Assembly: GCA_040006935.1 (NCBI GenBank)
Contig: JBDTVZ010000002.1
Span: 43,904-107,903 of the forward strand
Source: Candidatus Dojkabacteria bacterium
Lineage (GTDB): Bacteria; Patescibacteriota; Dojkabacteria; J137
DNA length: 64,000 nt
Direction: 5' to 3'
In this document: one piece after another, positions 2,473-55,921 of the stretch
Position numbering within the stretch: position 1 is the stretch's first letter
How the letters are laid out: every line of letters starts with the position of its first letter
Made by a program: the position numbers and the translations under genes
The notes under the pieces: generated by a model
Databases searched by the model: none
Seen by the model: the letters and a program-made list of their open reading frames with translations, nothing else
Told to the model about the DNA's origin: nothing

Positions 2473-3543
2473 ATGGACTACAGTCAAATACAATCTGTTC
2501 TTGGAGACAAGGCAGAGAATTTATTAAACTACAAATCTCCTACTTTTAAAGATCAGCAATTTTATAAACCAAATGGAAATTGGGTTGATGAAGTTATGGC
2601 TTTTTCTGATAGAAGTCCAAAAGTTTTAGAAAATTTAAAAAGACTTTACGGAGCTGGTAGATTAGCAAATTCTGGATACTTATCTATATTCCCAGTTGAT
2701 CAAGGAATTGAACACTCTGCTGGAGCATCTTTTGCAAAAAATCCAATTTATTTTGATCCTGAAAACATTGTTAAATTAGCTGTAGAAGCTCAAAGTAGTG
2801 GCGTTGCATCTACTTTAGGAGCTTTAGGCTTAGTTAGTAAAAAATATGCAGGCAAGATTCCTTTTATTGTTAAATTAAACCACAACGAACTTTTAACTTA
2901 TCCTAATAAATTTGATGAGGTTATGTTTAGTTCTGTTCAACAAGCTTTTGATATGGGAGCGGCAGGAGTTGGAGCAACAATATATTTTGGATCTGAAGAA
3001 TCTACAAGACAAATTCAAGAAGTTAGCCAAGCTTTTGCAAAAGCTCACGAACTTGGAATGTTCACAATTCTTTGGTGCTACACAAGAAATAGTGCATTTA
3101 AAAAGGATGTGATTGATTACCACACATCTGCAGACTTAACAGGACAAGCAAATCATTTAGGAGTAACAATTGAAGCAGATATTATTAAGCAAAAACTTCC
3201 AACTGTAAATGGTGGATTTAAAGCATTAAATTCTGGAAATTCTAGTTACGGAAAACTTGACGACAGAATGTATAGTGAGCTTTCTACTGATCATCCAATT
3301 GATTTAGCAAAATACCAAGTTGCAAATTGCTACATGGGAAAAATTCCATTAATTAATTCTGGAGGAGCTAGTGGGGATAATGATTTACAAGAAGCAATTG
3401 AAACGGCTGTTATTAATAAAAGAGCTGGTGGAAGTGGATTAATTTTAGGAAGAAAAGCTTTCCAAAAACCATTTGATGAGGGAGTTAAACTATTGAACGC
3501 TGTTCAGGATGTGTATTTATGTAAGGAAGTAGATTTAGCGTGA
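2473..3543 (+). CDS. fbaB: Class I fructose-bisphosphate aldolase (FbaB type)
   Basis: Near-collinear similarity to E. coli FbaB: [68 protein letters not shown]. Confidence 0.9.
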
Positions 3544-4061
3544 GTGAAGAAATAGCAAATTCTGAGTTAACAAATCCCGACGCATTTTTGAATAATAACC
3601 CACCCTTCCCTCCCTTAACAGGGAGGCCTACGGGAATATCGAATAGCCCCCTTGTTAAAGGGGGGCAGGGGGGATTTGTTAAGCCTGAGTATTTTGATAA
3701 ACCAGACTATATTCCATACAGTAAAAGATTGAAACCATTTTCGAGGGCCAACAGAAAATCCATGACACAAGCGGAAAAGAAGATTTGGTACGAAGTTTTA
3801 AGAGATAAAAAATTAGGATATAGATTTGTAAGGCAAAAGCCTATAGGAAAATATATTTTAGATTTCTATAGTTCTAAGTTACAATTGTGTATTGAGATTG
3901 ATGGAAGTACACATATAGGTAAAGAAATTGAGGATAGAGTAAGGGATGAATTTTTGCGAACATTAGGAATTACGACATTGAGATTTTGGAATTCAGAAAT
4001 AAAGAATGATTTAGAAAATATTAAAGAAAGGATTATAAGTTATATTAGTAAGAAATTTTAA
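3540..4061 (+). CDS. DUF559 endonuclease-domain protein; N-terminal ~50 codons are encoded by a palindromic repeat element
   Basis: The C-terminal core [48 protein letters not shown] is typical of DUF559 (Vsr-like fold). The GTG start and N-terminal extension are uncertain. Confidence 0.6.
3601..3688. repeat. Palindromic element (ccctccc-ttaaca-gggagg hairpin plus ccccc-ttgttaaa-gggggg hairpin) encoding ...PPLTGRP...[11 protein letters not shown]
   Basis: Two G/C hairpins seen directly. A related shorter copy is inserted in rarA at 55210-55262 (caccc...gggggNaggggggaNttg). Confidence 0.6.
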
Positions 4062-7938: not shown

Positions 7939-8484
7939 TTATGCTTCTGTTAAAACTGGGAATTCCCTTGTTAAAAAATCTGCAAATGCAAACATATCTA
8001 TAGGTTTTCGAAGTATATTTTCACTTTTTATATTTGTATATTGAGGATCTAAATCATTATATTGTGATGACCATAGTTGGACAATGATGTTGTCCCTTGG
8101 ATTTTGCAATATGATGTTAGCTATCTTATCTCCTTTTATAGTTCTAGTAAAGCAATCGAGGTTTCTATCGAGCATTAATAATACTTTAGTATCATCAGGA
8201 ATACTTCGTACCCATTCTTCAATTAAATCTCCTAAGTATGCTTCGTATTTCTGAACCTGAGCATGGGTTAGAATAATTTTTGCTACATATGGTATTTTAA
8301 AACTGACTGCAAGATCTATAATATTGCTAGTCTCATCGTCTAATACAAATACTACTTGTTTTTTCCCACCAATCATTGCCTCCATCTCCTTAAGAAAATC
8401 AATTTTCAAACTTTCGTAATCAATAGGTACTTCTGGCATAAGTAAGTATAAAAAAAATATTTTAAAGAACTTTAATAGCTTCAC
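7939..8484 (-). CDS. Hypothetical protein (weak receiver-domain-like pattern)
   Basis: ORF with KQVVFVLDDET...VLLMLDRNL pattern. No firm homology. Overlaps the dus start by 23 nt. Confidence 0.3.
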   Translation of the reverse strand: MKLLKFFKIFFLYLLMPEVPIDYESLKIDFLKEMEAMIGGKKQVVFVLDDETSNIIDLAVSFKIPYVAKIILTHAQVQKYEAYLGDLIEEWVRSIPDDTKVLLMLDRNLDCFTRTIKGDKIANIILQNPRDNIIVQLWSSQYNDLDPQYTNIKSENILRKPIDMFAFADFLTREFPVLTEA

Positions 8485-9562
8485 TCAATATCTGTCTCAC
8501 TTCCTCAATTGTCTTTGTTTGCATTAGTTTTGATCTTAATCCAACAGCATTATCGAAATTTGTACAGTACCATCCAAAATGTTTTCTCATCATTACAAAT
8601 GCTCGGGGATCTGGAAATATTTGTATGAACTTTTCTGCATGCTCTAATAGCGTGGCGATTCTATCTTCCTTAGTTTTCATGACCTTACCCTCACCTCTAA
8701 GTTCATTAAATATCCATGGATTTCCATAAGTTGCTCTACCAACCAAGACTCCGTACGCACCTGTTAATTCTAGAATTTTTTCAACATCATCTCTGGATTT
8801 AATATCACCATTAGCAAGAACAGGTTTGGATGTAGACTCAACAGCAATTTTTATTTCATTCCAATCTGCAGCGCCACCATAAAGTTGTTTTAGAGTTCTT
8901 CCATGAACAGTAATCCAATCTGGATTCGCTTTATCAATATTTCCAATCCATTGTTTAGTGACTGGAACATCGTAACCAATTCGTGTTTTTACTGAAACTG
9001 GAATGAGTTCCCGAAACACCTCCCGGTTCTCCGAACCACCCTCCTCAAGGAGGGACTTTCTTTCTCTATTGATCTGACTCTGATTTTTTACGGCATTGTA
9101 ACTTCTTTCTTTTAATCCCGTTAATTCTCCATTCTCTACCCAATGTTTTACTCCTTCTCTAACTGCTGCAATGATTTCCCTTGCTAAATCTGGAGTTCGG
9201 ATTAAACCCGCACCAGATCCGCTATTTGCAACAGTTTTTGCAGGGCATCCCATATTAATATCAACTCCTGTAAAACCAAGTTCGCAAATTATTTTTGCTG
9301 CATGGTAAAAATAATCTGGTTCTTTCCCGAAAATCTGGCCAAAAACAGGCCTTTCACTTTCATCATAAATAAAATGATGTAGAACATTATCTCCAGCCAT
9401 GCACATTCCCATTACATGAGTAAATTCAGTAAAAGTTACATCAGGATTTCCGTATTTTTTTGTAATATATCTAAAAGGCGCATCAGTAATCCCATCCATT
9501 GGGGATAGTCCTATTACTGGTGCTTTTAGATCCTGTATTCTAAACATCTTAATTAATAACAA
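8462..9562 (-). CDS. dus: tRNA-dihydrouridine synthase (DusB-like), carrying an in-frame palindromic insertion
   Basis: GLSPMDGITDAPFR, FGQIFG, GFTGVDINMGCPAK motifs. Insertion peptide KSLLEEGGSENREVF. Confidence 0.85.
   Translation of the reverse strand: MLLIKMFRIQDLKAPVIGLSPMDGITDAPFRYITKKYGNPDVTFTEFTHVMGMCMAGDNVLHHFIYDESERPVFGQIFGKEPDYFYHAAKIICELGFTGVDINMGCPAKTVANSGSGAGLIRTPDLAREIIAAVREGVKHWVENGELTGLKERSYNAVKNQSQINRERKSLLEEGGSENREVFRELIPVSVKTRIGYDVPVTKQWIGNIDKANPDWITVHGRTLKQLYGGAADWNEIKIAVESTSKPVLANGDIKSRDDVEKILELTGAYGVLVGRATYGNPWIFNELRGEGKVMKTKEDRIATLLEHAEKFIQIFPDPRAFVMMRKHFGWYCTNFDNAVGLRSKLMQTKTIEEVRQILSEAIKVL
9015..9057. repeat. Family-A palindromic element inside dus (aacacctcccggttctccgaaccaccctcctcaaggagggact)
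   Basis: Hairpin ccctcc-tcaa-ggaggg. The same element, with an extra nested hairpin, occurs in mnmA at 9723-9787. Confidence 0.7.
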
Positions 9563-9628: not shown

Positions 9629-10783
9629 TCATTTAATAACTCCACCTCCTAAACAAACTTCTCCAGAATAAATAACTAAACTTTGTCCAGATGCTACAGC
9701 TCTGACGGGTTCATCAAATATGAACACCTCCCGGTTCTTCATGCCTGACGGCAGGCAAGCCGGACCACCCTCCTCAAGGAGGGATTTTCTGATTAATTTT
9801 CCTGCTACTGGTTTTTGTCTGTATCTAACACTTGCTTCTAATTTTATTTCTGAGATTTGGTCTCTGAGTTCAGGATTTATCAAATGTAAATTCTCTAATT
9901 CTACTTCCTGAGAATACAATGCTTTGTGATCAGATCCCAAACATACATAGACAATATTTTTCTCAATATCTTTTTTACAAACAAAATATGGAACCACAGT
10001 TCCTCCAATTCCTAAACCATCTCTTTGCCCAATTGTATAAAAGTACACTCCTTTATGTTTTCCTACAACTTTATTCGTATCAATATCTCTAATTTCACCT
10101 TCTTTTACTGGAATTTTACTCATTAAAAATTGTAGAACATTAATCTCTCCTATAAAGCAAATCCCTTGGCTATCAGGTTTTTTAGCGTTTGGAAGTTCAG
10201 CTTCTTCTGCAATCTTTCGAACTTCTGGTTTTTGTAAATGACCTATTGGGAATAAAACTTTATCTAATTGATCGTGAGTTAGATTGTAAAGGAAATAAGT
10301 TTGATCTTTATTCGAATCTTTTCCCTTTAACATAAACGGTCCTTGAGATCCTCTGAGATCTGATGACTGATAACTCATAATTTTCTGTGCATAATGTCCA
10401 GTGGCAATGAAATCTGCACCTTCTGAAATTGCTTTCTCTAAAAATAACTTGAATTTGATTTCTTTGTTACACATCACATCAGGGTTTGGTGTTCTCCCTT
10501 TTTCGTATTCATTAAAAAAATATTCAACAACTTTATCTCTATATTGCTTTTCAAAATTCATGGATCTAAATGGAATTCCAATGTGCTTGCAAACTGCTTC
10601 TGCATCTTTTTGATCTTCTTCCCAGGGGCAATCAGCTTGTATCCCAAATTCATCACCAGACCAATTTTTCATATAAACTCCAGTTACATCGTAACCTTGT
10701 TTCTTTAAAAGATATGCGGAAACGGCAGAATCGACTCCGCCGGAAAGACCTACAAATACTTTTTTACCTTTTATCTGATTCAT
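9629..10783 (-). CDS. mnmA: tRNA-specific 2-thiouridylase MnmA, carrying an in-frame palindromic insertion near the C-terminus
   Basis: KKVFVGLSGGVDSAVSAYLL PP-loop motif. Start trimmed to MNQIKGKK (ATG at 10781-10783) because the longer ORF N-terminus is encoded by a palindromic repeat. Insertion peptide KSLLEEGGPACLPSGMKNREVF. Confidence 0.8.
   Translation of the reverse strand: MNQIKGKKVFVGLSGGVDSAVSAYLLKKQGYDVTGVYMKNWSGDEFGIQADCPWEEDQKDAEAVCKHIGIPFRSMNFEKQYRDKVVEYFFNEYEKGRTPNPDVMCNKEIKFKLFLEKAISEGADFIATGHYAQKIMSYQSSDLRGSQGPFMLKGKDSNKDQTYFLYNLTHDQLDKVLFPIGHLQKPEVRKIAEEAELPNAKKPDSQGICFIGEINVLQFLMSKIPVKEGEIRDIDTNKVVGKHKGVYFYTIGQRDGLGIGGTVVPYFVCKKDIEKNIVYVCLGSDHKALYSQEVELENLHLINPELRDQISEIKLEASVRYRQKPVAGKLIRKSLLEEGGPACLPSGMKNREVFIFDEPVRAVASGQSLVIYSGEVCLGGGVIK
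9723..9787. repeat. Family-A palindromic element inside mnmA with nested gcctgacggcaggc hairpin
   Basis: aacacctcccggttcttcatgcctgacggcaggcaagccggaccaccctcctcaaggagggatt. The ends are shared with the dus copy. The centre carries the GCCTG...CAGGC hairpin family. Confidence 0.7.
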
Positions 10784-10947
10784 TGAATTTTTGAATAGAT
10801 CTTTCGACAAGCTCCATGCTCGCATGCCCAAGGCAGGCAAGCGGGACATGTAAAATTAGATTTCGAAAAACATAGCTCTTCTCAATAAATTTTACCGTTG
10901 ATTATACCATGCAGAAGCAAATTAGAACCGACACAGACTTAGGAGTA

Positions 10948-20698: not shown

Positions 20699-21982
20699 AT
20701 GTACAATCTAAAAAAAGACTTAGATAAATATTCATACTTAAATATCCAAGATATTGAAAACAAAACTATAATTGTTAGATCTTGTCTAAATGTTGCTGTA
20801 GACAAAGAAGGAAGAATGGAAGATTCTACAAGATTTTATGAATCACTTCCGCTAATAAAAGAACTTGCTGAAAAAGCAAAAAAAGTAATTGTAATGGGAC
20901 ATTTGGGAAGACCAGAAAGAAGAGATAAATCGCTAAGTTTTTGGAATATCGCAGAAGTTTTAACAACGGAGTTAGAAGAGCAAAGAGTTGAAGTTGAATT
21001 AGTAGATTCCCTGGGAAAAATAGGTAAGAAAGAGACGCATAATCCAGAGACGCATAATCTTGATACGCATAATCTTGATACGCATAATCTTGAGACGCAT
21101 AATTATGCGTCTGTAAAGGCACAAAGAAAAAAAATAATATTAATCGATAATATCCGATTTTTCCCAGGAGAAGAGAGTAAAAATAAAGATGTTCGAATGG
21201 CATTTGCAAAAGAATTAGCGAGCCTCGCAGATGTTTTTGTTAACGATGCTTTCGCAGATTATCGAGAATCAGCCTCTACTTATGATATTGCAACATTACT
21301 ACCTAGTTATTTAGGCCCAGTATTTATGAAAGAAGTTGCAGCACTTTCGAAATTTTCACAACCAGAAAGCCCATTTGTTGCAGTTTTAGGAGGAGCAAAA
21401 TTGTCAGAAAAATTGGATGCACTCAATGCATTAGTTCAAATTGCAGATAAAGTAATAATCGGAGGAGCCATGGCCTATACGATAATGAAGGCAATCGGAG
21501 TTGAAACTGGAAATTCATTGATTGAAAAAGATAAATTAGAGATTGCTACAGAAATAATGAATAAATATTCTGAGAAGATCCTCTTACCTGTAGACCATTT
21601 GGTTGCGCAAGAATTTAAATTAAAATCCCCTTATGAATACACAGAGACAGAAGTGGTTCCTGCTGATATGGTTGCAATAGACATTGGCTGGAACTCTATC
21701 AGAAAATTCAAAACAGAAATTTCTAATTCAAAATCTATTTTATGGAATGGTCCAATGGGAGTATTTGAGTGGATACATTCTAGCGTTGGAACAAAAGAGA
21801 TTGGAAGTGCAATTGCTGAGAATACTTCAGCATACTCATTAGCAGGAGGAGGAGATTCAATTGCTGCAATAAATAAATTTAATTTAAGAGGTTTTGACCA
21901 TGTATCTACAGGTGGAGGCGCGATGTTAGCATTTTTGGCATATGATAAATTCCCTACTTTAGATGTTATTTTGAATAAATAA
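20699..21982 (+). CDS. pgk: Phosphoglycerate kinase with an in-frame tandem-repeat insertion
   Basis: PGK motifs (RSCLNV, MGHLGRP, GGGAM...). Insertion peptide ETHNPETHNLDTHNLDTHNLETHN. Confidence 0.9.
   Translation: MYNLKKDLDKYSYLNIQDIENKTIIVRSCLNVAVDKEGRMEDSTRFYESLPLIKELAEKAKKVIVMGHLGRPERRDKSLSFWNIAEVLTTELEEQRVEVELVDSLGKIGKKETHNPETHNLDTHNLDTHNLETHNYASVKAQRKKIILIDNIRFFPGEESKNKDVRMAFAKELASLADVFVNDAFADYRESASTYDIATLLPSYLGPVFMKEVAALSKFSQPESPFVAVLGGAKLSEKLDALNALVQIADKVIIGGAMAYTIMKAIGVETGNSLIEKDKLEIATEIMNKYSEKILLPVDHLVAQEFKLKSPYEYTETEVVPADMVAIDIGWNSIRKFKTEISNSKSILWNGPMGVFEWIHSSVGTKEIGSAIAENTSAYSLAGGGDSIAAINKFNLRGFDHVSTGGGAMLAFLAYDKFPTLDVILNK
21033..21109. repeat. 15-bp x ~5 tandem repeat (gaYacgcataatcNNg) ending in palindrome gacgcataattatgcgtc
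   Basis: Direct repeats are visible. In frame (5 aa per unit) inside pgk. Confidence 0.8.
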
Positions 21983-27992: not shown

Positions 27993-30602
27993 ATGACTAG
28001 AAAAAATATATTAACCGTATTAACTGGAATCTTTTTTGTGCTTTTAATTGGAGTTGGAATTTATTTTGCAATCCAAGCAACAAATAACCAAGCCCCTGGT
28101 GATGCCGCAGCTTTAGGATGTTTTCAAAGAAGCTTAGCATGTACAGGTAGTGGTTGTTATTGTGGTTCAAACTATGCAAGTGCCACTTGTAATACTAATG
28201 CGAATGGTTGCAGCCCAGTTGCTGATTGGTGCCAAAGTATAACTTGTAATCCACCGCCACCAGTTCAGCCACCGCCACCGCCACCGCCTCCTAATGCACC
28301 ACCTAATACTCCTCCACCTCCAGCACCTACATGCTATGGATCAGGAAATGCTAATGCCTGTAGTAATCCTGGTCAAGTAGTTCCATATGCAGATTCCAAC
28401 AATATTGTAACTTCATGTACTTGTGCAAGAACTACAGGTACTTTATGCTCCTGTGTGCCAAGTAATGGAACAACATGTATTGCTGATGTTACAGGAACAA
28501 ATTGTGCCTCTAAAGGAGTAGGAGCTTCATGTTCGGCTGGGAATAATGGAACTGGTTATTGTCAATCAACGGGAGTTACAAATGGTAGCTTAAATTGTGC
28601 TTGCCATGTTACAGCAAATGTCCCTCCAGCACCTCCAACAGGTTGTACTTCAGATAGTTCTTGCAATGCAGGTCAGTTTTGTAGTACAAGCAACGGAGTG
28701 TGTGGTGCTAAGCTTGCAAATGGAGTTCAAGGCTGTTCTAGTAATAATATGTGTTTAAGTGGAAGTTGTTCAAATAACTTTTGCGTCGCCACTGCACAAC
28801 CTCCTCCTGCTACAAGTGGCGGTGGAACAACTGGCGGGGCTGCTGCTGGTGCTTCTTGTATATCAAATGCCAATTGCGGAACTGGTTTAGTTTGCCAAGG
28901 TACTAATGGAAGTAAAGTTTGCCAAGTTGCAAGCAATTGTAACGCAAGTAATCCTAGCCAATGTAATTGTAATACTGGAGGTGCAGTTTGTAGCGGATAC
29001 CTAGCTTTCACTTGTAATCAATTAACAAATGGACAATGTTTAAGTAACCCTCAAGATGCCTCTAGCGAGGCAGATGCTACTAGTAAAGCAGGTGTCTGCG
29101 GTCAAGTAGATCAAGTTTGGGTTGGAGGTCCATGTAATAGAACTTTATGCGGTGGATTTACGGTATATAATCAATGTTCCGGCGGTGGCACATCCACAGG
29201 TGGAACAACCGTTACACCTCCGCCACCACCTCCACCACCACCACCTCCTCCTCCTGGCACACCTTATTGTGGAGATTCTCTTTGTGCAACTAATGAACTT
29301 TGCGAAAGGACTGCACCAAATGCAACTACTTACAAAGCATGCACAAGCGCAAGCGGAGTAGCTCCAACAGGATCCGATGTTTCTTTATGTTATGGAGTAG
29401 GATTTAGTCAACCAGTACAATCAAGTACCTGTAAATATTGTGGAGATGGAACTTACACTCCAGGAACAGAACAATGTGATGCATCTGCACCAGCAACTGG
29501 TGGCAATAATCCTGCACAATGTAGTGCATCTTGTACTTTAAATCCTGTTGCTAATGTTTGTATAAGTATGACAGAAAATGGAGTTGATCCAGTACGATCT
29601 GGTACTTCTAACTTTATAGACTATGTATTAGTATTCCAGAATAGTTCAACAAGTAACCCATTCCCTAATATTAGATTATTAGTTTCAACATCAAACACAG
29701 TTGCAACAGCAGTAGGAAGAGATGCGAATAATGTATCTAGTGCGCTAGTAGCACCAATTCCAACTGGAGGTTACACATATGACTCTGTAACATCAAGGCA
29801 TACCTATACCTTCAGATGGGAATCTGTAAGTACAGGTGGAGTTCCTGTTCCAGATGCGAGTTACACTGTAAGAGGATTAACAAATGGGACTGACGGATCT
29901 ATAGTTACAACACCAGCAGAATGTACAGAGAGCATAACTACATCAGCTGCACAGGTACAAGAGCCATTATTTAATATTATTAAAACTGCTGTGGAAACTT
30001 GCGGTGAAGGTACAAATGCTGTAATCAATTATACTGTAACAGTAACTAATGTGGGACCAGTATCTGGAGTAGTGGACTTTGTTACAGATACACTAGATCC
30101 ACTAATAGTTAGCTTGGGAATAACACCAACTAGTATTAATCCCGCATCTGGGAATTATTCTGCAGGTGTAATTACGTGGACTGGTACAGTAGGAGAGAGA
30201 ACATTCACTGCTGGGCAATCTAAGACTTATACTTATACTGTTACTATTCCGTCTAATCAAGTTCTTAACTTTGCAAGTGCTGGTGTACAAAACTTAGCTG
30301 CTGTCCAATACGATACAAATACAACATCTAACAATACTTCCAGCTTTAATTTAAGAACAATGTTAAGTTGTACTATAAATGGTATTCCAATTACTGGAAT
30401 ATTTGATGATGGTAAATTGCTCTTGTTTGGATTAGTATTTATATTCTTAGGATTTGTAGCTTATAGATATCAAATTGGTAAAACAATTTCCGAAAAATTA
30501 ATTTCTGGAGCTTTGAATACTGCAGAAGGTGGCGTTGAAAAATTAATGCCATTTGAAGACAGAATTGAAAGAAAAATGGAAAAAAGAAGAAAGAAAGAAT
30601 AA
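27993..30602 (+). CDS. Large Cys-rich cell-surface protein with poly-Pro linkers, DUF11-like repeat and C-terminal TM anchor
   Basis: N-terminal TM helix; more than 60 Cys; PPPPVQPPPPPPPPNAPP and P13 tracts. DUF11-like NYTVTVTNVGPVSGVVDFVTDTLDP. C-terminal TM helix LLLFGLVFIFLGFVAY. Confidence 0.6.
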   Translation: MTRKNILTVLTGIFFVLLIGVGIYFAIQATNNQAPGDAAALGCFQRSLACTGSGCYCGSNYASATCNTNANGCSPVADWCQSITCNPPPPVQPPPPPPPPNAPPNTPPPPAPTCYGSGNANACSNPGQVVPYADSNNIVTSCTCARTTGTLCSCVPSNGTTCIADVTGTNCASKGVGASCSAGNNGTGYCQSTGVTNGSLNCACHVTANVPPAPPTGCTSDSSCNAGQFCSTSNGVCGAKLANGVQGCSSNNMCLSGSCSNNFCVATAQPPPATSGGGTTGGAAAGASCISNANCGTGLVCQGTNGSKVCQVASNCNASNPSQCNCNTGGAVCSGYLAFTCNQLTNGQCLSNPQDASSEADATSKAGVCGQVDQVWVGGPCNRTLCGGFTVYNQCSGGGTSTGGTTVTPPPPPPPPPPPPPGTPYCGDSLCATNELCERTAPNATTYKACTSASGVAPTGSDVSLCYGVGFSQPVQSSTCKYCGDGTYTPGTEQCDASAPATGGNNPAQCSASCTLNPVANVCISMTENGVDPVRSGTSNFIDYVLVFQNSSTSNPFPNIRLLVSTSNTVATAVGRDANNVSSALVAPIPTGGYTYDSVTSRHTYTFRWESVSTGGVPVPDASYTVRGLTNGTDGSIVTTPAECTESITTSAAQVQEPLFNIIKTAVETCGEGTNAVINYTVTVTNVGPVSGVVDFVTDTLDPLIVSLGITPTSINPASGNYSAGVITWTGTVGERTFTAGQSKTYTYTVTIPSNQVLNFASAGVQNLAAVQYDTNTTSNNTSSFNLRTMLSCTINGIPITGIFDDGKLLLFGLVFIFLGFVAYRYQIGKTISEKLISGALNTAEGGVEKLMPFEDRIERKMEKRRKKE

Positions 30603-34372: not shown

Positions 34373-34400
34373 CCTGCGTGCGCAGGCAGGACGAAATGAC
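34373..34400. repeat. cctgcgtgcgcaggcaggacgaaatgac copy of the GCCTGCG-N-CGCAGGC / gaaatgac repeat family
   Basis: Shares gcaggcagg-(t)cg(a/c)aatgac with 42371-42398 and 41515-41538. Confidence 0.5.
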
Positions 34401-38341: not shown

Positions 38342-38460
38342 TTGTGTCATTTCGACTGAGGAGCTTAAGCGACGAATGGAGAAATCTTTACCACTGCCCC
38401 ATAATGTCAGAAGGGTGGTACAGATTTCTCGACTCACTTCGTTCGCTCGAAATGACACAA
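38342..38460. mobile_element. MITE-like element (~119 bp) with TIR TTGTGTCATTTCGA / TCGAAATGACACAA
   Basis: Terminal inverted repeats; internal cgacgaatggagaaatctt and ctcacttcgttcg motifs shared with the 42103-42222 and 41431-41540 copies. Confidence 0.6.
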
Positions 38461-38472
38461 TATTGTAATAGT

Positions 38473-38508
38473 CCCCTCTCCTTTTAAGGAGAGGGTTAGG
38501 GTGAGGTC
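38473..38508. repeat. Hairpin cccctctcc-ttttaa-ggagaggg plus gggtgagg
   Basis: Related to 43362-43429 (ccctctcc...ggagaggg, cctcaccc...gggtgagg). Confidence 0.5.
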
Positions 38509-38655
38509 AAAAAGATAAGACTGCCAAGCAATCGAGTGTCGTAACCCCACAAAATATTAACTGCCCGAAGAGTGTATGAGGTGGGCTAAAGCCAACATAA
38601 ATCTAAAGCTCATAAATTCGCTAAGATTTATAGCTGTATTGTAATAGATTCGAAA

Positions 38656-41430: not shown

Positions 41431-41540
41431 TTGTGTCATCTCGAGCGAAGTCGAGAGATCTCAACCAGCTTCCTGACATGATACGACAAGTGGTTAAGAT
41501 TTCCCTTGCCTGACGGTAGGCAGGTCAGTCGAAATGACAT
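41431..41540. mobile_element. MITE-like element, inverted orientation (TIR ttgtgtcatctcgag ... gtcgaaatgacat)
   Basis: Start matches the reverse complement of the 42190-42222 end. Contains gcctgacggtaggc hairpin. Confidence 0.55.
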
Positions 41541-41546
41541 TAATCA

Positions 41547-42008
41547 TTAAATAATGTCTGATATTTCCGAAAGCAAGCTATTGGCAGAGTTCCGAAGGAA
41601 GTTAGAATTTGGGGAATAATCCATTTCGTGTGCTAGCTTGTTTCGAAGTTTATGAACTTCCCAAATTGTATTGTAAGAAGTATTATTTCGAAATAAATGT
41701 TTTGCATTTTTAAGTCTTTCACCTAAAGTCTCTCCTTTTACTTTTTTAGATTTCAGTACAAAGTCTAAAAGCTTATCTGCTTCAAATACAGCATTCTTTA
41801 AAATCATTTCTTCTTTCGCAGTAGTTAGTCCTCTAATTTTATTTAAATTAGTTTTAGCCTTTATTTTCCACTCCGCATCCGCATGCTGAGGAGTTAAAAG
41901 CATGTAAACAAAAATCCCCCCGAGGATTGCAACAGCGATAATTACAATTGCTAAAAGTTCATTCATGCCTATATGATACTGGAAAATGAATAATATTTGT
42001 AGAGTCAA
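41547..42008 (-). CDS. Hypothetical small membrane-anchored protein
   Basis: TM helix LLAIVIIAVAILGGIFVYMLL. Start may be the downstream MNELL. 3' end abuts the MITE. Confidence 0.3.
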   Translation of the reverse strand: MTLQILFIFQYHIGMNELLAIVIIAVAILGGIFVYMLLTPQHADAEWKIKAKTNLNKIRGLTTAKEEMILKNAVFEADKLLDFVLKSKKVKGETLGERLKNAKHLFRNNTSYNTIWEVHKLRNKLAHEMDYSPNSNFLRNSANSLLSEISDII

Positions 42009-42102: not shown

Positions 42103-42222
42103 TTGTGTCATTTCGACTGACCTGCCTGACTGCGTACGCAGGCACGGGGAGTGTAACGACGAATGGAGACATCTTCGACCACGGAGGTTAAAGATCTCTC
42201 GACTTCGCTCGAGATGACACAA
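42103..42222. mobile_element. MITE-like element with TIR TTGTGTCATTTCGA...TCGAGATGACACAA and nested cctgcctgactgcgtacgcaggca hairpin
   Basis: Collinear with 38342-38460 apart from the inserted hairpin module. Confidence 0.6.
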
Positions 42223-42335
42223 AGAAACTAAATAGGCTGTAACACAGCCTGACCAAAATGTTGAATTTACACAAAACACAGGCTTTTATTAGTGGGAGGA
42301 TAAGCTTAAGTGGAAGTGGAAGGCTTTCTTTAGAG

Positions 42336-42400
42336 TGAGATTGCTTCGTCGCTGTGCTCCCCATGCCTGCGTACGCAGTCAGGCAGGTCGCAATGACAAC
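42336..42400. repeat. gagattgcttcgtcgct-[gcctgcgtacgcagtcaggc hairpin]-gtcgcaatgaca element
   Basis: Inverted copy of the hairpin module at 42118-42148. Just 3' of the uvrB fragment. Confidence 0.55.
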
Positions 42401-42450
42401 GAAAGGTTATTCGGGGATTCTTCTCTTAATTATTAATTTATAATTCTTAA

Positions 42451-43344
42451 TTACTTTTCAAGGTCGTCCACGATATCCCTCAACTCCGCGGCTTTTTCGA
42501 ATTCAAGCATATCCGCAAAAATTTGCATTTGCATTTTTAATTCCTTAACAAACTTCCCTCGTTCCTTTTTTGGCATTGCTTTATAGCTTTCCGCAAGTTT
42601 TAACAAATCCTTTCCTTTCACATCTTTTTCCTCTTCCTTTGCAAATTTATTTAGTTGGTCCGTAATTGCTTTTTTAATAGTTGTTGGAGTAATTCCATGT
42701 TCAGTATTATATTTTTCCTGAACTGCTCTTCGTCTTCTAGTTTCAGATATTGCTGCATACATCGAATCCGTAATTTTATCCGCGTACATTAACACTCGGC
42801 CTTCGGAATGCCTTGCTGCTCTACCAATTGTTTGAATCAAGCTCGTTTGTGACCGTAAAAAACCTTCTTTATCCGCATCTAGTATTGCGACTAACGAAAC
42901 TTCTGGCAAATCTAAACCTTCTCTTAGTAAATTAATTCCAACCAAGACATCGTATTCTCCAAGTCTTAAACTCTTTAAAATCTGAACTCTTTCGATTGTA
43001 TCGATATCGGAATGAATATATTTACTTTTTACATTTCGTTCGACTAAGAAATCCGAAAGCTCTTCCGACATTCTTTTTGTTAAAGTTGTTACTAAAACTC
43101 TTTGGCCTTTTTTAATAGTTTTATCTATTTCTAGCATTAAATCCTGAACCTGTGTTCGTTCCCAGTAAGCTTCTGCCAGAATTGGCATATCTTTCAATCC
43201 ACGATCTTCTAAACTTTTTTTAAGTTGTAAAAAAGCATCTGGTAAAGTTGGACGAACTTCAATATTAGGATCTAATAACCCTGTAGGACGGATAATTTGG
43301 TAAACAATACCTTCGTAATTTTCTGGAAGTTTAAATTTGGACAT
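42451..43344 (-). pseudogene. uvrB: uvrB 3' fragment (C-terminal ~300 aa of excinuclease ABC subunit B only)
   Basis: The ORF begins at [20 protein letters not shown], matching the UvrB segment that starts roughly 400 residues into full-length UvrB (position from memory). It runs through helicase motifs V/VI (TIGRAARH) to the C-terminal UvrB/UvrC coiled-coil. The N-terminal half is absent and replaced by repeats. Confidence 0.6.
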
Positions 43345-43361
43345 ATAGGAATTATATCACG

Positions 43362-43429
43362 CCTCACCCGTCTCTCACTTCGTTCGAGCCACCCTCTCCA
43401 GCAAAGATGGAGAGGGGCTTGGGGTGAGG
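43362..43429. repeat. Nested palindromic element cctcaccc...ccctctcc-agcaaagat-ggagaggg...gggtgagg
   Basis: Nested perfect stems. Shares ctcacttcgttcg with the MITE family. Confidence 0.55.
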
Positions 43430-43749
43430 TTACAAACTCTTAATTCTTAATTGATCATTATCTAGGTAAATCACTATTCGAAGGTAAATGTTCCGTTGCA
43501 ATTTTAGAAAGCGATTCCTTTCCACTTCCATTAAAAAATTTCCCTATTCCAAAAATATCAAAACCTTCCAATAGCCATAAAATTCCATAACCAAATGTCA
43601 TGATAGCTTTAGCTAGAAATTTTAAAATTGAAAGAAGTATTTCCATAATTTAATTTTAACACTTGAAAAAGTTGATCTATTAATTATTTACAGAGATTTT
43701 ATATTATTGTTACATTACTCTTTAGTCAGCATTTATACAGACTGTGTTA

Positions 43750-43773
43750 CCTGCCTGACTGCGCACGCAGGCA
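43750..43773. repeat. cctgcctgactgcgcacgcaggca hairpin module
   Basis: Same module as 42118-42148 and 42361-42388. Confidence 0.55.
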
Positions 43774-43826
43774 TGGCGACCTATTCTGAGATTCAATTCA
43801 TTTCTTCATTTTTTCATTCCTTCATT

Positions 43827-48892: not shown

Positions 48893-48925
48893 TGAAAAAT
48901 TAAGAAATTTCCACTCCTTTTAAGG

Positions 48926-48955
48926 ACCTGCCTGGCGCGACGGCAGGCAGGTCGT
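48926..48955. terminator. Palindrome gacctgcctg-gcgcgacg-gcaggcaggtc between convergent kef and lysS
   Basis: 10-bp GC stem of the CCTGCCTG/CAGGCAGG repeat family, between a plus-strand stop (48892) and a minus-strand stop (48977). Confidence 0.5.
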
Positions 48956-48976
48956 AATCCTCAATTTTTTTATTTG

Positions 48977-54682: not shown

Positions 54683-55921
54683 TTGGAACCTTTAGCTTCA
54701 AAATTTCGACCACAAAATCTTAATGAATTTATTGGACAAGAACATCTTGTTGGTGAAGGTAAACCTATACGAAAATTTATAGAAACTGGAAATATTCCTT
54801 CAATGATTTTTTGGGGACCTCCTGGAACTGGGAAAACTACATTAGCTTATATTATTTCTAAAACTGTTCATGCAGATTTTTACAAACTTTCTGCGGTAAT
54901 GAGTGGGAAAGCACAACTTATGGATATTATTAAAAAAGCCATGAAGCAAAGCCAATCCCCTACTTTAACAGGTGGCGATAAGACAATCTTATTTCTGGAT
55001 GAAATTCATCGATGGAATAAATCTCAACAGGATGCATTACTTCCTTATGTTGAAAAAGGTGTAATAATTTTAATTGGAGCGACGACTGAAAACCCATCCT
55101 TTAGTTTAATCCCTGCTCTGCTTTCAAGGTGTAGAGTGTTTACATTTCAAAAGCATGAGACTACGGATGTGGAAAAATATGTGAATTTACTCGTTGAAAA
55201 ACTAAATAACACCCCCGACTTCGTCATCCCTTCTTTATCAAAGAGGGGGAAGGGGGGAGTTGATATTGATAAAGAATCTATTGAATTTATTGCGAAAGCA
55301 TCAGATGGAGATTTAAGAACATCAGCAAATATTTTAGAATCTACTCTATTTGCAGGGGAAGGGGAAATTAATAAAGAAATTTTGAAGAAGACGGTAGAAA
55401 ATTTCTTACAATACGAAAGTAGAGGTGAGGACCATTACAATATAATTTCTGCAGTACATAAATCTTTAAGGGATTCTGATCCAGATGCAGGAGTTTATTG
55501 GGTTACTAGAATGCTGGAAGCTGGAGATGATCCACTTTATATCGCACGAAGACTTTTGAGGTTCGCATCCGAAGATATTGGAAATGCTGATCCACAAGCT
55601 GTGATTTTAGCAAATACAATTTTTGAAACTTGTCAAAAATTAGGAAGACCAGAATGTGATGTGGCATTAATTCAACTAGCAATTTATTTAGCCAGAGCTC
55701 CAAAAAGCAACGAAGCTTATTTTGCAAGTAATTTAGCAAAGCAAGATGTGCAAGAATATGGTTCGCTTCCTGTGCCCTTGCATATTAGGAACGCACCTAC
55801 TAAACTGATGAAAGAATTAAACTATGGGAAAGGTTATAAATATGCCCATGATTATAAAGATGCGAAAGTGGATCAAGAACATTTGCCTGATCAATTGAAA
55901 AATAAGAAATATACTAAATAA
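54683..55921 (+). CDS. rarA: Recombination factor RarA/MgsA AAA+ ATPase with in-frame palindromic insertion
   Basis: FWGPPGTGKTT, LFLDEIHRWNKSQQDALLPYVEKG, C-terminal MgsA domain. Insertion peptide PDFVIPSLSKRGKGGVDID. Confidence 0.85.
   Translation: MEPLASKFRPQNLNEFIGQEHLVGEGKPIRKFIETGNIPSMIFWGPPGTGKTTLAYIISKTVHADFYKLSAVMSGKAQLMDIIKKAMKQSQSPTLTGGDKTILFLDEIHRWNKSQQDALLPYVEKGVIILIGATTENPSFSLIPALLSRCRVFTFQKHETTDVEKYVNLLVEKLNNTPDFVIPSLSKRGKGGVDIDKESIEFIAKASDGDLRTSANILESTLFAGEGEINKEILKKTVENFLQYESRGEDHYNIISAVHKSLRDSDPDAGVYWVTRMLEAGDDPLYIARRLLRFASEDIGNADPQAVILANTIFETCQKLGRPECDVALIQLAIYLARAPKSNEAYFASNLAKQDVQEYGSLPVPLHIRNAPTKLMKELNYGKGYKYAHDYKDAKVDQEHLPDQLKNKKYTK
55210..55262. repeat. Family-B palindromic element inside rarA (cacccccgacttcgtcatcccttctttatcaaagagggggaaggggggagttg)
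   Basis: Same ends and G/C hairpin layout as 3601-3688. The encoded KRGKGGV parallels VKGGQGGF. Confidence 0.6.

Follow-up and report, generated by a model that had tools for sequence, protein, structure and literature searches.

Rickettsia palindromic elements (RPEs) measure ~100-150 bp and are confined to Rickettsia; we know of no enzyme associated with them. Fungal mitochondria harbour mobile GC clusters and double-hairpin elements, which form GC islands in AT-rich genomes. Here we describe a GC-rich hairpin unit in 64,000 nt of DNA from a Candidatus Dojkabacteria bacterium (assembly GCA_040006935.1, contig JBDTVZ010000002.1, positions 43,904 to 107,903 of the forward strand; this whole stretch is termed the window). 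One copy is translated within the gene of a tRNA-dihydrouridine synthase (dus), a related one within mnmA. DUF559 is a very large family whose nucleases are uncharacterised. We consider it likely that both inserts are non-autonomous modules of DUF559 cassettes, because units of the same architecture flank DUF559 genes, and that they are tolerated, being free of stop codons and situated in loops.

Hairpins lie upstream of 15 of 16 free-standing homing endonuclease genes of the Vsr-like and GIY-YIG types (Dassa et al. 2009, PMC2677866). They arrive together with the gene, and one locus keeps the hairpin after gene loss (PMC2677866). For such hairpins a role in translational control is proposed, exerted through sequestration of the ribosome-binding site (PMC2677866; I-Bth0305I, PMC3239194). 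The Vsr/DUF559/DUF2726 group contains a proven homing endonuclease (PMC3424549, PMC3239194). Two large superfamilies of repetitive extragenic palindromes (REPs) are marked by a GTAG or CGTC head (PMC3733652).

The searchable literature (subscription-only papers being outside its scope) holds no description of the units, of a link to DUF559 or of in-frame palindromic repeats in the Candidate Phyla Radiation (CPR), in line with the novelty that an earlier note on this DNA had proposed for such genomes. Neither the exact sequences nor the peptide SLLEEGG are found in these papers, and none of those on DUF559 describes flanking repeats.

In-frame hairpin units in dus and mnmA

The unit comprises 41 nt in three parts, a hairpin H1 (CCCTCC-TTGA-GGAGGG), a variable hairpin H2 and a G-box, GGGAGGTGTT, which repeats the G-arm of H1. 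The genes, the two copies and their parts are listed here, ORF denoting open reading frame.

8462..9547, minus strand: dus, tRNA-dihydrouridine synthase, 361 aa (ORF 8462-9562)
9015..9055, minus strand: solo hairpin unit inside dus; gene sense TCCCTCCTTGAGGAGGGTGGTTCGGAGAACCGGGAGGTGTT, translated as (K)SLLEEGGSENREV(F)
9015-9024, 9025-9037 and 9039-9054, given on the plus strand: G-box, H2 (GGTTC/GAACC) and H1 (CCCTCC/GGAGGG) of the dus unit
9629..10849, minus strand: mnmA ORF, tRNA 2-thiouridine synthase, 406 aa; the insert corresponds to residues 355-376
9723..9784, minus strand: second unit, inside mnmA, 62 nt, translated as KSLLEEGGPACLPSGMKNREVF
9723-9732 and 9768-9783: G-box and H1 of the mnmA unit, both as in dus, with H2 in between enlarged to 34 nt (9733-9766)
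9740..9759, minus strand: CATGCCTGACGGCAGGCAAG, a secondary hairpin nested within H2 of the mnmA unit, a net gain of 21 nt (7 codons, PACLPSG)

The earlier note had reported a 43-nt element that is translated inside dus without a break of the frame. This string indeed occurs exactly once in the window, at 9015-9057 on the plus strand (0 occurrences expected from shuffles), and reads in frame as KSLLEEGGSENREVF on the minus strand, within the dus ORF. Its hairpin CCCTCC/GGAGGG holds as described; its length does not, because comparison with copies in other genomes limits the unit proper to 41 nt (9015-9055) and assigns the last two bases to the flank.

An NCBI protein from a metagenome-assembled genome (MAG) of Candidatus Dojkabacteria matches the window Dus at 100% identity. 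The insert covers residues 164-178. As the earlier note had anticipated, the three closest orthologues (P0002-P0004, 73-77% identity; underlying DNA L001, L003 and L004) lack it, 16 codons (48 nt) of the window Dus being missing there. The alignment reads ...AVKAKSNYG(D/E/L)(K/T)RELKSVSVKTRIG in the orthologues and ...AVKNQSQINRERKSLLEEGGSENREVFRELIPVSVKTRIG in the window. PDB homologues are likewise without the segment, the equivalent elements of solved Dus structures being separated by ~3 residues. In the AlphaFold model (mean pLDDT, i.e. predicted local distance difference test, of 88.6) the insert forms the end of a lineage-specific helix and a coil ahead of the conserved strand VSVKTR, with pLDDT values of 79 and 66 per ten-residue block. 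An assembly artefact is conceivable for the dus copy, which is, however, in frame in an intact gene. We regard the dus segment not as ancestral to the protein but as a solo unit belonging to a small DNA repeat with dispersed copies.

For mnmA, the earlier note had claimed the same element. A related copy is indeed present, but it is not identical, as it comprises 62 nt with 21 extra bases in the second hairpin. The terminal sub-motif AACACCTCCCGGTTCT has exactly two sites in the 64 kb, at 9015 and 9723, and so has CCACCCTCCTCAAGGAGGGA, at 9036 and 9765; altogether dus and mnmA have stretches of 16 nt and 20 nt that are identical. The nested hairpin belongs to a CCTGCC..GGCAGG family that also occurs elsewhere in the window and serves as H2 in other phyla.

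Of three close MnmA orthologues, two (P0123 and P0124) are without the insert; among the DNA loci it is absent from mnmA of L003. In contrast to them, the closest orthologue (P0122, 77% identity) carries a short form, KSLLEEGGSKNQEVI, at the same site, encoded by TCCCTCCTTGAGGAGGGTGGTTCGAAGAACCAGGAGGTG. It is found in assembly GCA_039922295.1 (L001) and in an independent Logan contig (L002), by which an assembly artefact is ruled out for mnmA. Local duplication between the neighbouring genes dus and mnmA was also considered and is ruled out by the presence of the unit in other assemblies and phyla. PDB homologues of MnmA do not have the segment. In the AlphaFold model of MnmA the C-terminal barrel contains a beta hairpin whose loop is this segment; pLDDT is <50 at residues 363-368. 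Both inserts are thus loops of lowered model confidence, in agreement with the surface position suggested earlier, and the conserved residues are retained in Dus and MnmA alike.

The genome with the short mnmA form (L001) has an insert-free Dus. Hence the dus insertion is either younger than that in mnmA or lineage-specific. Once this lineage had separated from its closest sequenced relatives, the unit would have added 48 nt to a surface loop of Dus that is variable and lineage-specific. The mnmA insertion may be common to two species and possibly older, or the same site may have been struck twice; within its H2, the window copy would later have acquired another hairpin of 21 nt.

The 5' end of the mnmA ORF coincides with a separate hairpin of the CCTGCC type (10803-10853). 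It gives rise to an N-terminal extension, MSRLPALGMRAWSLS..., which is absent from orthologues. Annotation has therefore probably placed the start too far upstream and, judged by orthologue N-termini, the true one would lie near 10786.

Concerning composition, the units have 61-63% G+C, compared to ~36% in the dus and mnmA genes and ~33% in the window. The nucleotides shared by two genes, the high G+C and the intergenic copies elsewhere argue for a repeat at the DNA level and not for a protein motif. Three features would explain why the inserts persist: the absence of stop codons from five of six frames of the unit, length changes divisible by three, and a position in loops. No tRNA or tmRNA is present. 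A search of Rfam returned nothing at the window unit, neither by gathering score nor at E<=1, and nothing in 25 unit-bearing loci. The weak hit Bacteroides-1 (E=0.86, 9363-9441) lies elsewhere in dus and was dismissed as chance. On the antisense (plus) strand both window copies resemble intrinsic terminators, with H1 followed by a T-rich tail, a look that may be incidental. Single-sequence folding on the gene strand is weak (z -0.8 to -1.6), so that the structural argument rests on the comparison across copies.

Architecture and distribution of the unit

The exact 19-mer of H1 was searched against one genome per GTDB species and gave 69 loci. About 28 of them, in high-GC genomes (Thermus, Streptomyces, Umezawaea and others), are without a G-box; they were taken for coding or chance matches and set aside. 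In the remainder, 37 units have the full architecture. As H1 was fixed by the search its variation is invisible here, but the architecture as a whole was not imposed. The earlier note had asked if the motif might be unique to its locus: the mnmA copy, the short copy of L001/L002 and the ~37 units of other genomes demonstrate its recurrence. The latter are distributed as follows.

Dojkabacteria: HKST-UBA09 (five loci) and HKST-UBA13 (two loci)
Balneolaceae: including cultured Fodinibius, Halalkalibaculum and Aliifodinibius
Flavobacteriales: Aquimarina, Maribacter and Vicingaceae

The consensus consists of T-CCCTCC-TTGA-GGAGGG-T, a hairpin starting with GG and usually ending with CC, and GGGAGGTGT(T). 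H2 occurs in 38 distinct sequences, which extend the fixed GG by 9 to 35 nt; with few exceptions they fold as hairpins (mean z -3.4 vs shuffles). Among ten short units, two pairs of H2 show compensatory double changes, and 0/500 shuffles reach the observed covariation score. The units begin with T-CCCTCC and end with GGTGTT, without a GTAG or CGTC head. Between the ends TCCCTCC... and ...GGAGGTGTT there is only the 5-nt complementarity CCTCC/GGAGG, i.e. terminal inverted repeats are lacking.

Two copies are found in the window, at least five in HKST-UBA09, at least four in Halalkalibaculum and at least five in a Rhodohalobacter MAG. The dus unit matches units of a Vicingaceae MAG (L038) and a Flavobacteriales MAG (L055) at 40/41 positions, with a single loop base differing. 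Taxon labels are those on the MAG records; the cultured Balneolaceae genomes bear the unit as well. The majority of units is intergenic and 8/17 with a co-oriented upstream gene start <=10 nt from its stop codon.

Doublets occur in HKST-UBA09 and HKST-UBA13. They consist of a unit A, 5-7 nt and a diverged inverted unit A', ACACCCCTCCCC-hairpin-TACTCCCCTCGAGGGGAG. Orthologous intergenic doublets of HKST-UBA13 (L034) and HKST-UBA09 (L036) have the same first variable hairpin (H2) but unrelated A' hairpins, which suggests that hairpin modules are exchanged between copies. Two non-orthologous doublets within UBA09 (including the comparison with L035) have a common second hairpin and different first ones. 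Moreover, CCTGCC..GGCAGG hairpins act as H2 or as the loop of H1 in several phyla.

Three further copies are read in frame in Pfam-supported proteins of other phyla, always within inter-domain linkers:

Methionyl-tRNA synthetase (MetRS): between the anticodon-binding and tRNA-binding domains
PabB-like enzyme: between the N-terminal and chorismate-binding domains
HsdR, the R subunit of a type I restriction system: between Helicase_C and EcoEI_R_C

The five in-frame protein copies use two frames, three of them that of SLLEEGG and two that of TPP..HPPQGG on the other strand. In addition, Dus genes of other Dojkabacteria contain different units of the same architecture, in frame, at two positions: the loop already described and another that follows GNPWIF. 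These units read CCTCCCC-TTGA-GGGGAGG-TTA-GGTGGGGTG or CCCTCTCC/GGAGAGGG with CCTCACCC. As different units sit in the same loops, in-frame insertion into Dus is a recurrent process in this phylum.

A homologue of RarA/MgsA may carry a third in-frame insertion within the window.

55210..55262, plus strand: candidate unit in rarA (ORF 54683-55921), ACACCCCC..CCCTTCTTTATCAAAGAGGGGGAAGGGGGGAG

The candidate coincides with 12 extra residues (NNTPDFVIPSLS) relative to MgsA of E. coli, the only protein compared.

Units next to DUF559 genes and further repeats of the window

In a Bacteroidota MAG (L029) two doublets flank a 123-aa gene located between meaB and methylmalonyl-CoA mutase. Both doublets hold the exact 19-mer, one G-box being intact and the other reading GGGAGATG. 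According to Pfam the gene encodes DUF559, a Vsr-like PD-(D/E)xK nuclease. DUF559 genes turned up by chance in two more loci (L063 and L019), each with such a hairpin just upstream; among ~45 element loci there are 3 DUF559 hits. On the reverse strand of positions 1-520 of L019 (Aquimarina sp., contig CANMDH010000009.1), a leucyl-tRNA synthetase (LeuRS) frame (…NWIGRSEGASVTFNV) meets no stop codon as it passes into a hairpin, CCCTTCCC/GGGAAGGG, and the DUF559 domain, within which the locus ends. The LeuRS gene appears to be interrupted by the cassette.

For an unbiased test, 80 DUF559 loci were retrieved from metagenomes of the Joint Genome Institute (JGI) by protein alone. Windows of the same loci at >=900 nt from the DUF559 gene served as controls.

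Hairpin with C-arm and G-arm <=200 nt upstream: 69/76 DUF559 genes (91%), 56/1358 controls (4%)
Hairpin with G-box in gene orientation: 62% of DUF559 genes, 1% of controls
Hairpin downstream of the gene: 82% of DUF559 genes, without a separate control figure
Upstream and downstream flanks forming an inverted repeat >=14 nt: 24/74 DUF559 genes, 2/60 controls

Clean cases of inverted partners are L126, L120, L147, L122 and L157, in which the inverted repeat includes H2 (50 nt in L126, 34 nt in L120 and L147). Across the 80 loci the unit type changes with the adjacent DUF559 gene: arm sequences vary (CCCTCC, CCCCC, CCCCTC, CTCCTC, CCCTCTCC) with constant architecture. CPR examples are L157 and L158. 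In L157 (Shapirobacteria) the DUF559 gene is flanked by AAACCCTTCG..CCTCCCTTGACAGGGAGG and its reverse complement, and the downstream unit is translated in frame as the C-terminal tail of the protein. The inverted repeats flanking DUF559 genes fit the report that this family is among those enriched at predicted programmed inversions (PMC9881135).

The G-box ends 2-14 nt before the predicted start codon in 23/77 loci by strict and 48/78 by lenient assignment. Pairing of the H1 C-arm is possible both with its own G-arm and, alternatively, with the G-box. The 3' end of 16S rRNA has GGAGGTG as its classical complement. In its native position, one unit would lie just upstream of a DUF559 gene, often with an inverted copy downstream. 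As the G-box is often at Shine-Dalgarno distance and the C-arm has two alternative partners, the native unit may act as a leader for translational control.

The window contains one DUF559 gene, with related hairpin units in its 5' part.

3540..4061, plus strand: DUF559 (Vsr-like PD-(D/E)xK nuclease) ORF, gene 3540/3762-4061; Pfam domain from residue 63
3595-3685: related hairpin units, CCCTCCCTTAACAGGGAGG and CCCCCTTGTTAAAGGGGGG-CA-GGGGGGATTTGTT

The gene has a DeoC-family aldolase gene on one side and a beta-lactamase-like gene on the other, and NCBI annotates a protein of 173 aa. Because the first ~60 residues are translated GC-rich hairpin units, the true start is probably near 3726-3762.

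Further repeats are present at other sites of the window.

38474..38510, plus strand: intergenic unit of the same architecture, CCCTCTCC-TTTTAA-GGAGAGGG-TTA-GGGTGAGG
43355..43431, plus strand: intergenic composite of C-box CCTCACCC, H1 CCCTCTCC/GGAGAGGG and G-box GGGGTGAGG
10803-10853, 34375-34400, 42107-42171, 42332-42401, 43737-43792 and 48908-48967: sites of a second repeat family

The composite adjoins the start of a minus-strand ORF (42451-43344, 297 aa) whose product matches UvrB in its C-terminal half only, with the domains Helicase_C, UvrB and UVR. No N-terminal half is found upstream and the ORF may be a split or truncated uvrB. Hairpins of the form CCTGCC(TG)..(CG)CAGGCAGG make up the second family, and GTCATTTCGAC / GTCGCAATGAC frequently lie beside them. 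Long inverted repeats of the type TTGTGTCATCTCGAGCGAAGTCGAGAGATCT occur at 41431-41461 and 42192-42222, at 42119-42163 and 42345-42389, and at 38344-38462. One such pair (31 nt, 100% complementary, 730 nt apart) surrounds a 153-aa ORF at 41547-42008 without a Pfam match and could be another small element.

Two coding repeats stand apart. A 15-nt tandem repeat (GAGACGCATAATCTT, ~five copies) is present at 21032-21106 inside ORF 20699-21982. The segment 28241-29376 of ORF 27993-30602 (plus strand, 869 aa) consists of GGT/GGC/CCA/CCT runs encoding Gly- and Pro-rich stretches (local G+C 0.42) and is low-complexity coding sequence, not a hairpin unit.

Origin of the inserts and relation to described elements

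The assignment of the dus and mnmA inserts to DUF559 cassettes builds on what the data show: the segments are inserted when compared with orthologues, units recur in different genomes with one architecture, both inserts lie in loops, and such units are statistically associated with DUF559 genes. Together these point to a little-studied selfish element that adds loops to proteins. The units could have spread by a DUF559 nuclease acting in trans or by repair at its cut sites, or they could be remnants after deletion of a cassette.

Several points weigh against this assignment. An action of DUF559 on unit DNA is something we infer. The dus and mnmA copies are solo, having neither an adjacent DUF559 gene nor an inverted partner; the only DUF559 gene of the window is ~5 kb away and its unit type differs (CCCCC and CCCTCCC arms). 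At the codon level, comparison of filled and empty sites reveals no clear target-site duplication at dus or mnmA, the flanks being diverged, and with no clear terminal inverted repeat either, a transposition signature is missing. Within HKST-UBA09, H1 and the G-box are identical among copies whereas H2 is wholly different, which simple copying of one master element does not account for. Moreover, the conservation of H1 and the G-box across phyla is partly imposed by the exact 19-mer search, and the analysis covered a 64-kb part of the genome, too little for a proportion of coding and intergenic copies that would hold genome-wide.

Alternatively, a full cassette of unit, DUF559 gene and inverted unit might have invaded dus and mnmA, in the way in which free-standing homing endonuclease genes fracture the genes of their hosts, deletion of the nuclease gene then leaving one in-frame unit, with no mobilisation of the short unit itself. 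The LeuRS frame of L019, which passes straight into hairpin and DUF559 domain, would fit such a course, as would the locus of Dassa et al. that lost the endonuclease and kept the hairpin (PMC2677866). Dus and MnmA are moreover tRNA-modification enzymes, whose temporary loss is assumed to be survivable. Yet each site would have to undergo two events and regain its frame exactly, neither site retains a remnant of the nuclease gene or an inverted partner, and solo units and doublets far outnumber cassettes in the ~45 element loci; we regard this origin as unlikely. A mechanism of the REP type, in which single-stranded hairpins are moved by a REP-associated tyrosine transposase (RAYT, IS200/IS605-like Y1) while DUF559 is merely adjacent, would account for short, GC-rich, imperfect palindromes that are mostly extragenic and often found just past stop codons. 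The inverted doublets of HKST-UBA09 and UBA13 also resemble REP doublets forming hairpins (REPINs). It is improbable nonetheless: the units lack the GTAG or CGTC head, no RAYT gene was seen, though no systematic search was made, and the joint change of unit type and DUF559 gene across the 80 loci is what is expected if both travel together.

Even less credit is given to a classical MITE (miniature inverted-repeat transposable element), i.e. a deletion derivative of an insertion sequence with DDE transposase that landed in frame by chance. Cases of MITEs inserted in frame are on record for Rickettsia, Coxiella and enterobacteria, and the units are small, non-coding and multi-copy, with dispersed copies in several genomes; but their ends are not mutual inverted repeats, a target-site duplication is not visible, the variability of H2 within one genome is atypical, and no transposase was seen in the flanks examined, not all window ORFs having been screened. 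Finally, the segments might not be selfish at all but selected in place, as a peptide loop or as an antisense terminator or mRNA structure. The terminator-like look of both window copies on the plus strand could be cited for this, as could the use of the SLLEEGG frame by three independent copies and of TPP..HPPQGG by two. Selection at the peptide level cannot account for nucleotides that are identical, synonymous positions included, both between a pair of unrelated genes and with intergenic DNA from other phyla, and the closest orthologues function without the segment; we hold local selection to be the most far-fetched of the explanations considered.

Beyond the assignment of the two inserts to DUF559 cassettes, a wider reading is conceivable, which we put forward tentatively. 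DUF559 genes and their structured flanking units may form an unrecognised, cross-phylum class of selfish cassettes. A unit would then combine an anti-Shine-Dalgarno-like arm, a Shine-Dalgarno-like arm, a variable hairpin and the G-box. Its hairpin modules might outlive or out-spread the gene, recombine and repeatedly become loops or linkers (Dus, MnmA and perhaps RarA; MetRS, the PabB-like enzyme and HsdR). The 40/41 identity between dus and Flavobacteriales units would reflect a recent transfer between CPR and Bacteroidota; if true, near-identical units of Dojkabacteria and Bacteroidota might serve as markers of CPR-host contact.

CPR proteins are known for lineage-specific insertions of obscure origin. 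Stop-free hairpin repeats entering loops of housekeeping enzymes, repeatedly and independently, offer one concrete source: different units occupy the same two Dus loops in different Dojkabacteria. For DUF559 genes a testable role emerges, as the results suggest that they travel with defined structured DNA or RNA modules. There are consequences for annotation as well. Gene callers turn units into N- or C-terminal extensions (the 173-aa DUF559 protein of the window, the DUF559 tail in Shapirobacteria), and alignments treat them as 'variable regions'.

The comparison with RPEs drawn in the earlier note is apt for the behaviour, but not for membership in the family. Like RPEs, the units are dispersed palindromic repeats, in frame in conserved genes, surface-exposed and absent from orthologues, with the host gene left intact. 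Unlike RPEs, they measure 41-62 nt, are GC-rich in an AT-rich genome, modular, present in at least three phyla and linked to DUF559; this distinction is drawn from size and description. In-frame MITEs (Coxiella QMITEs, PMC5896051; enterobacterial RU/ERIC, PMC2759123) are likewise small, structured, stop-free repeats that add peptide segments. From these and from mitochondrial GC clusters the units differ in sequence, size and host, and in the searchable papers none of them is associated with DUF559 or occurs in CPR.

With REPs and REPINs the units have in common short, GC-rich, imperfect palindromes, a mostly extragenic position near gene 3' ends, inverted doublets and mosaic clusters. In contrast, they bear no GTAG/CGTC tag, their gene partner is a PD-(D/E)xK nuclease and not a Y1 transposase, and intragenic copies are read in frame; both window copies are intragenic, unlike the mainly extragenic REP/REPIN pattern.

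The homing endonucleases of Dassa et al. also combine a small Vsr relative with a hairpin directly before the start codon and with complementary conserved motifs. Those cases are phage-like marine sequences located between split-intein halves, with AT-rich hairpins of the late-promoter type, no downstream inverted partner and no dispersed solo copies. The units described here, in contrast, accompany chromosomal Pfam DUF559 genes, combine G/C-tract hairpins with a repeated G-box, often come with an inverted copy and occur dispersed, singly or as doublets, some of them intragenic.

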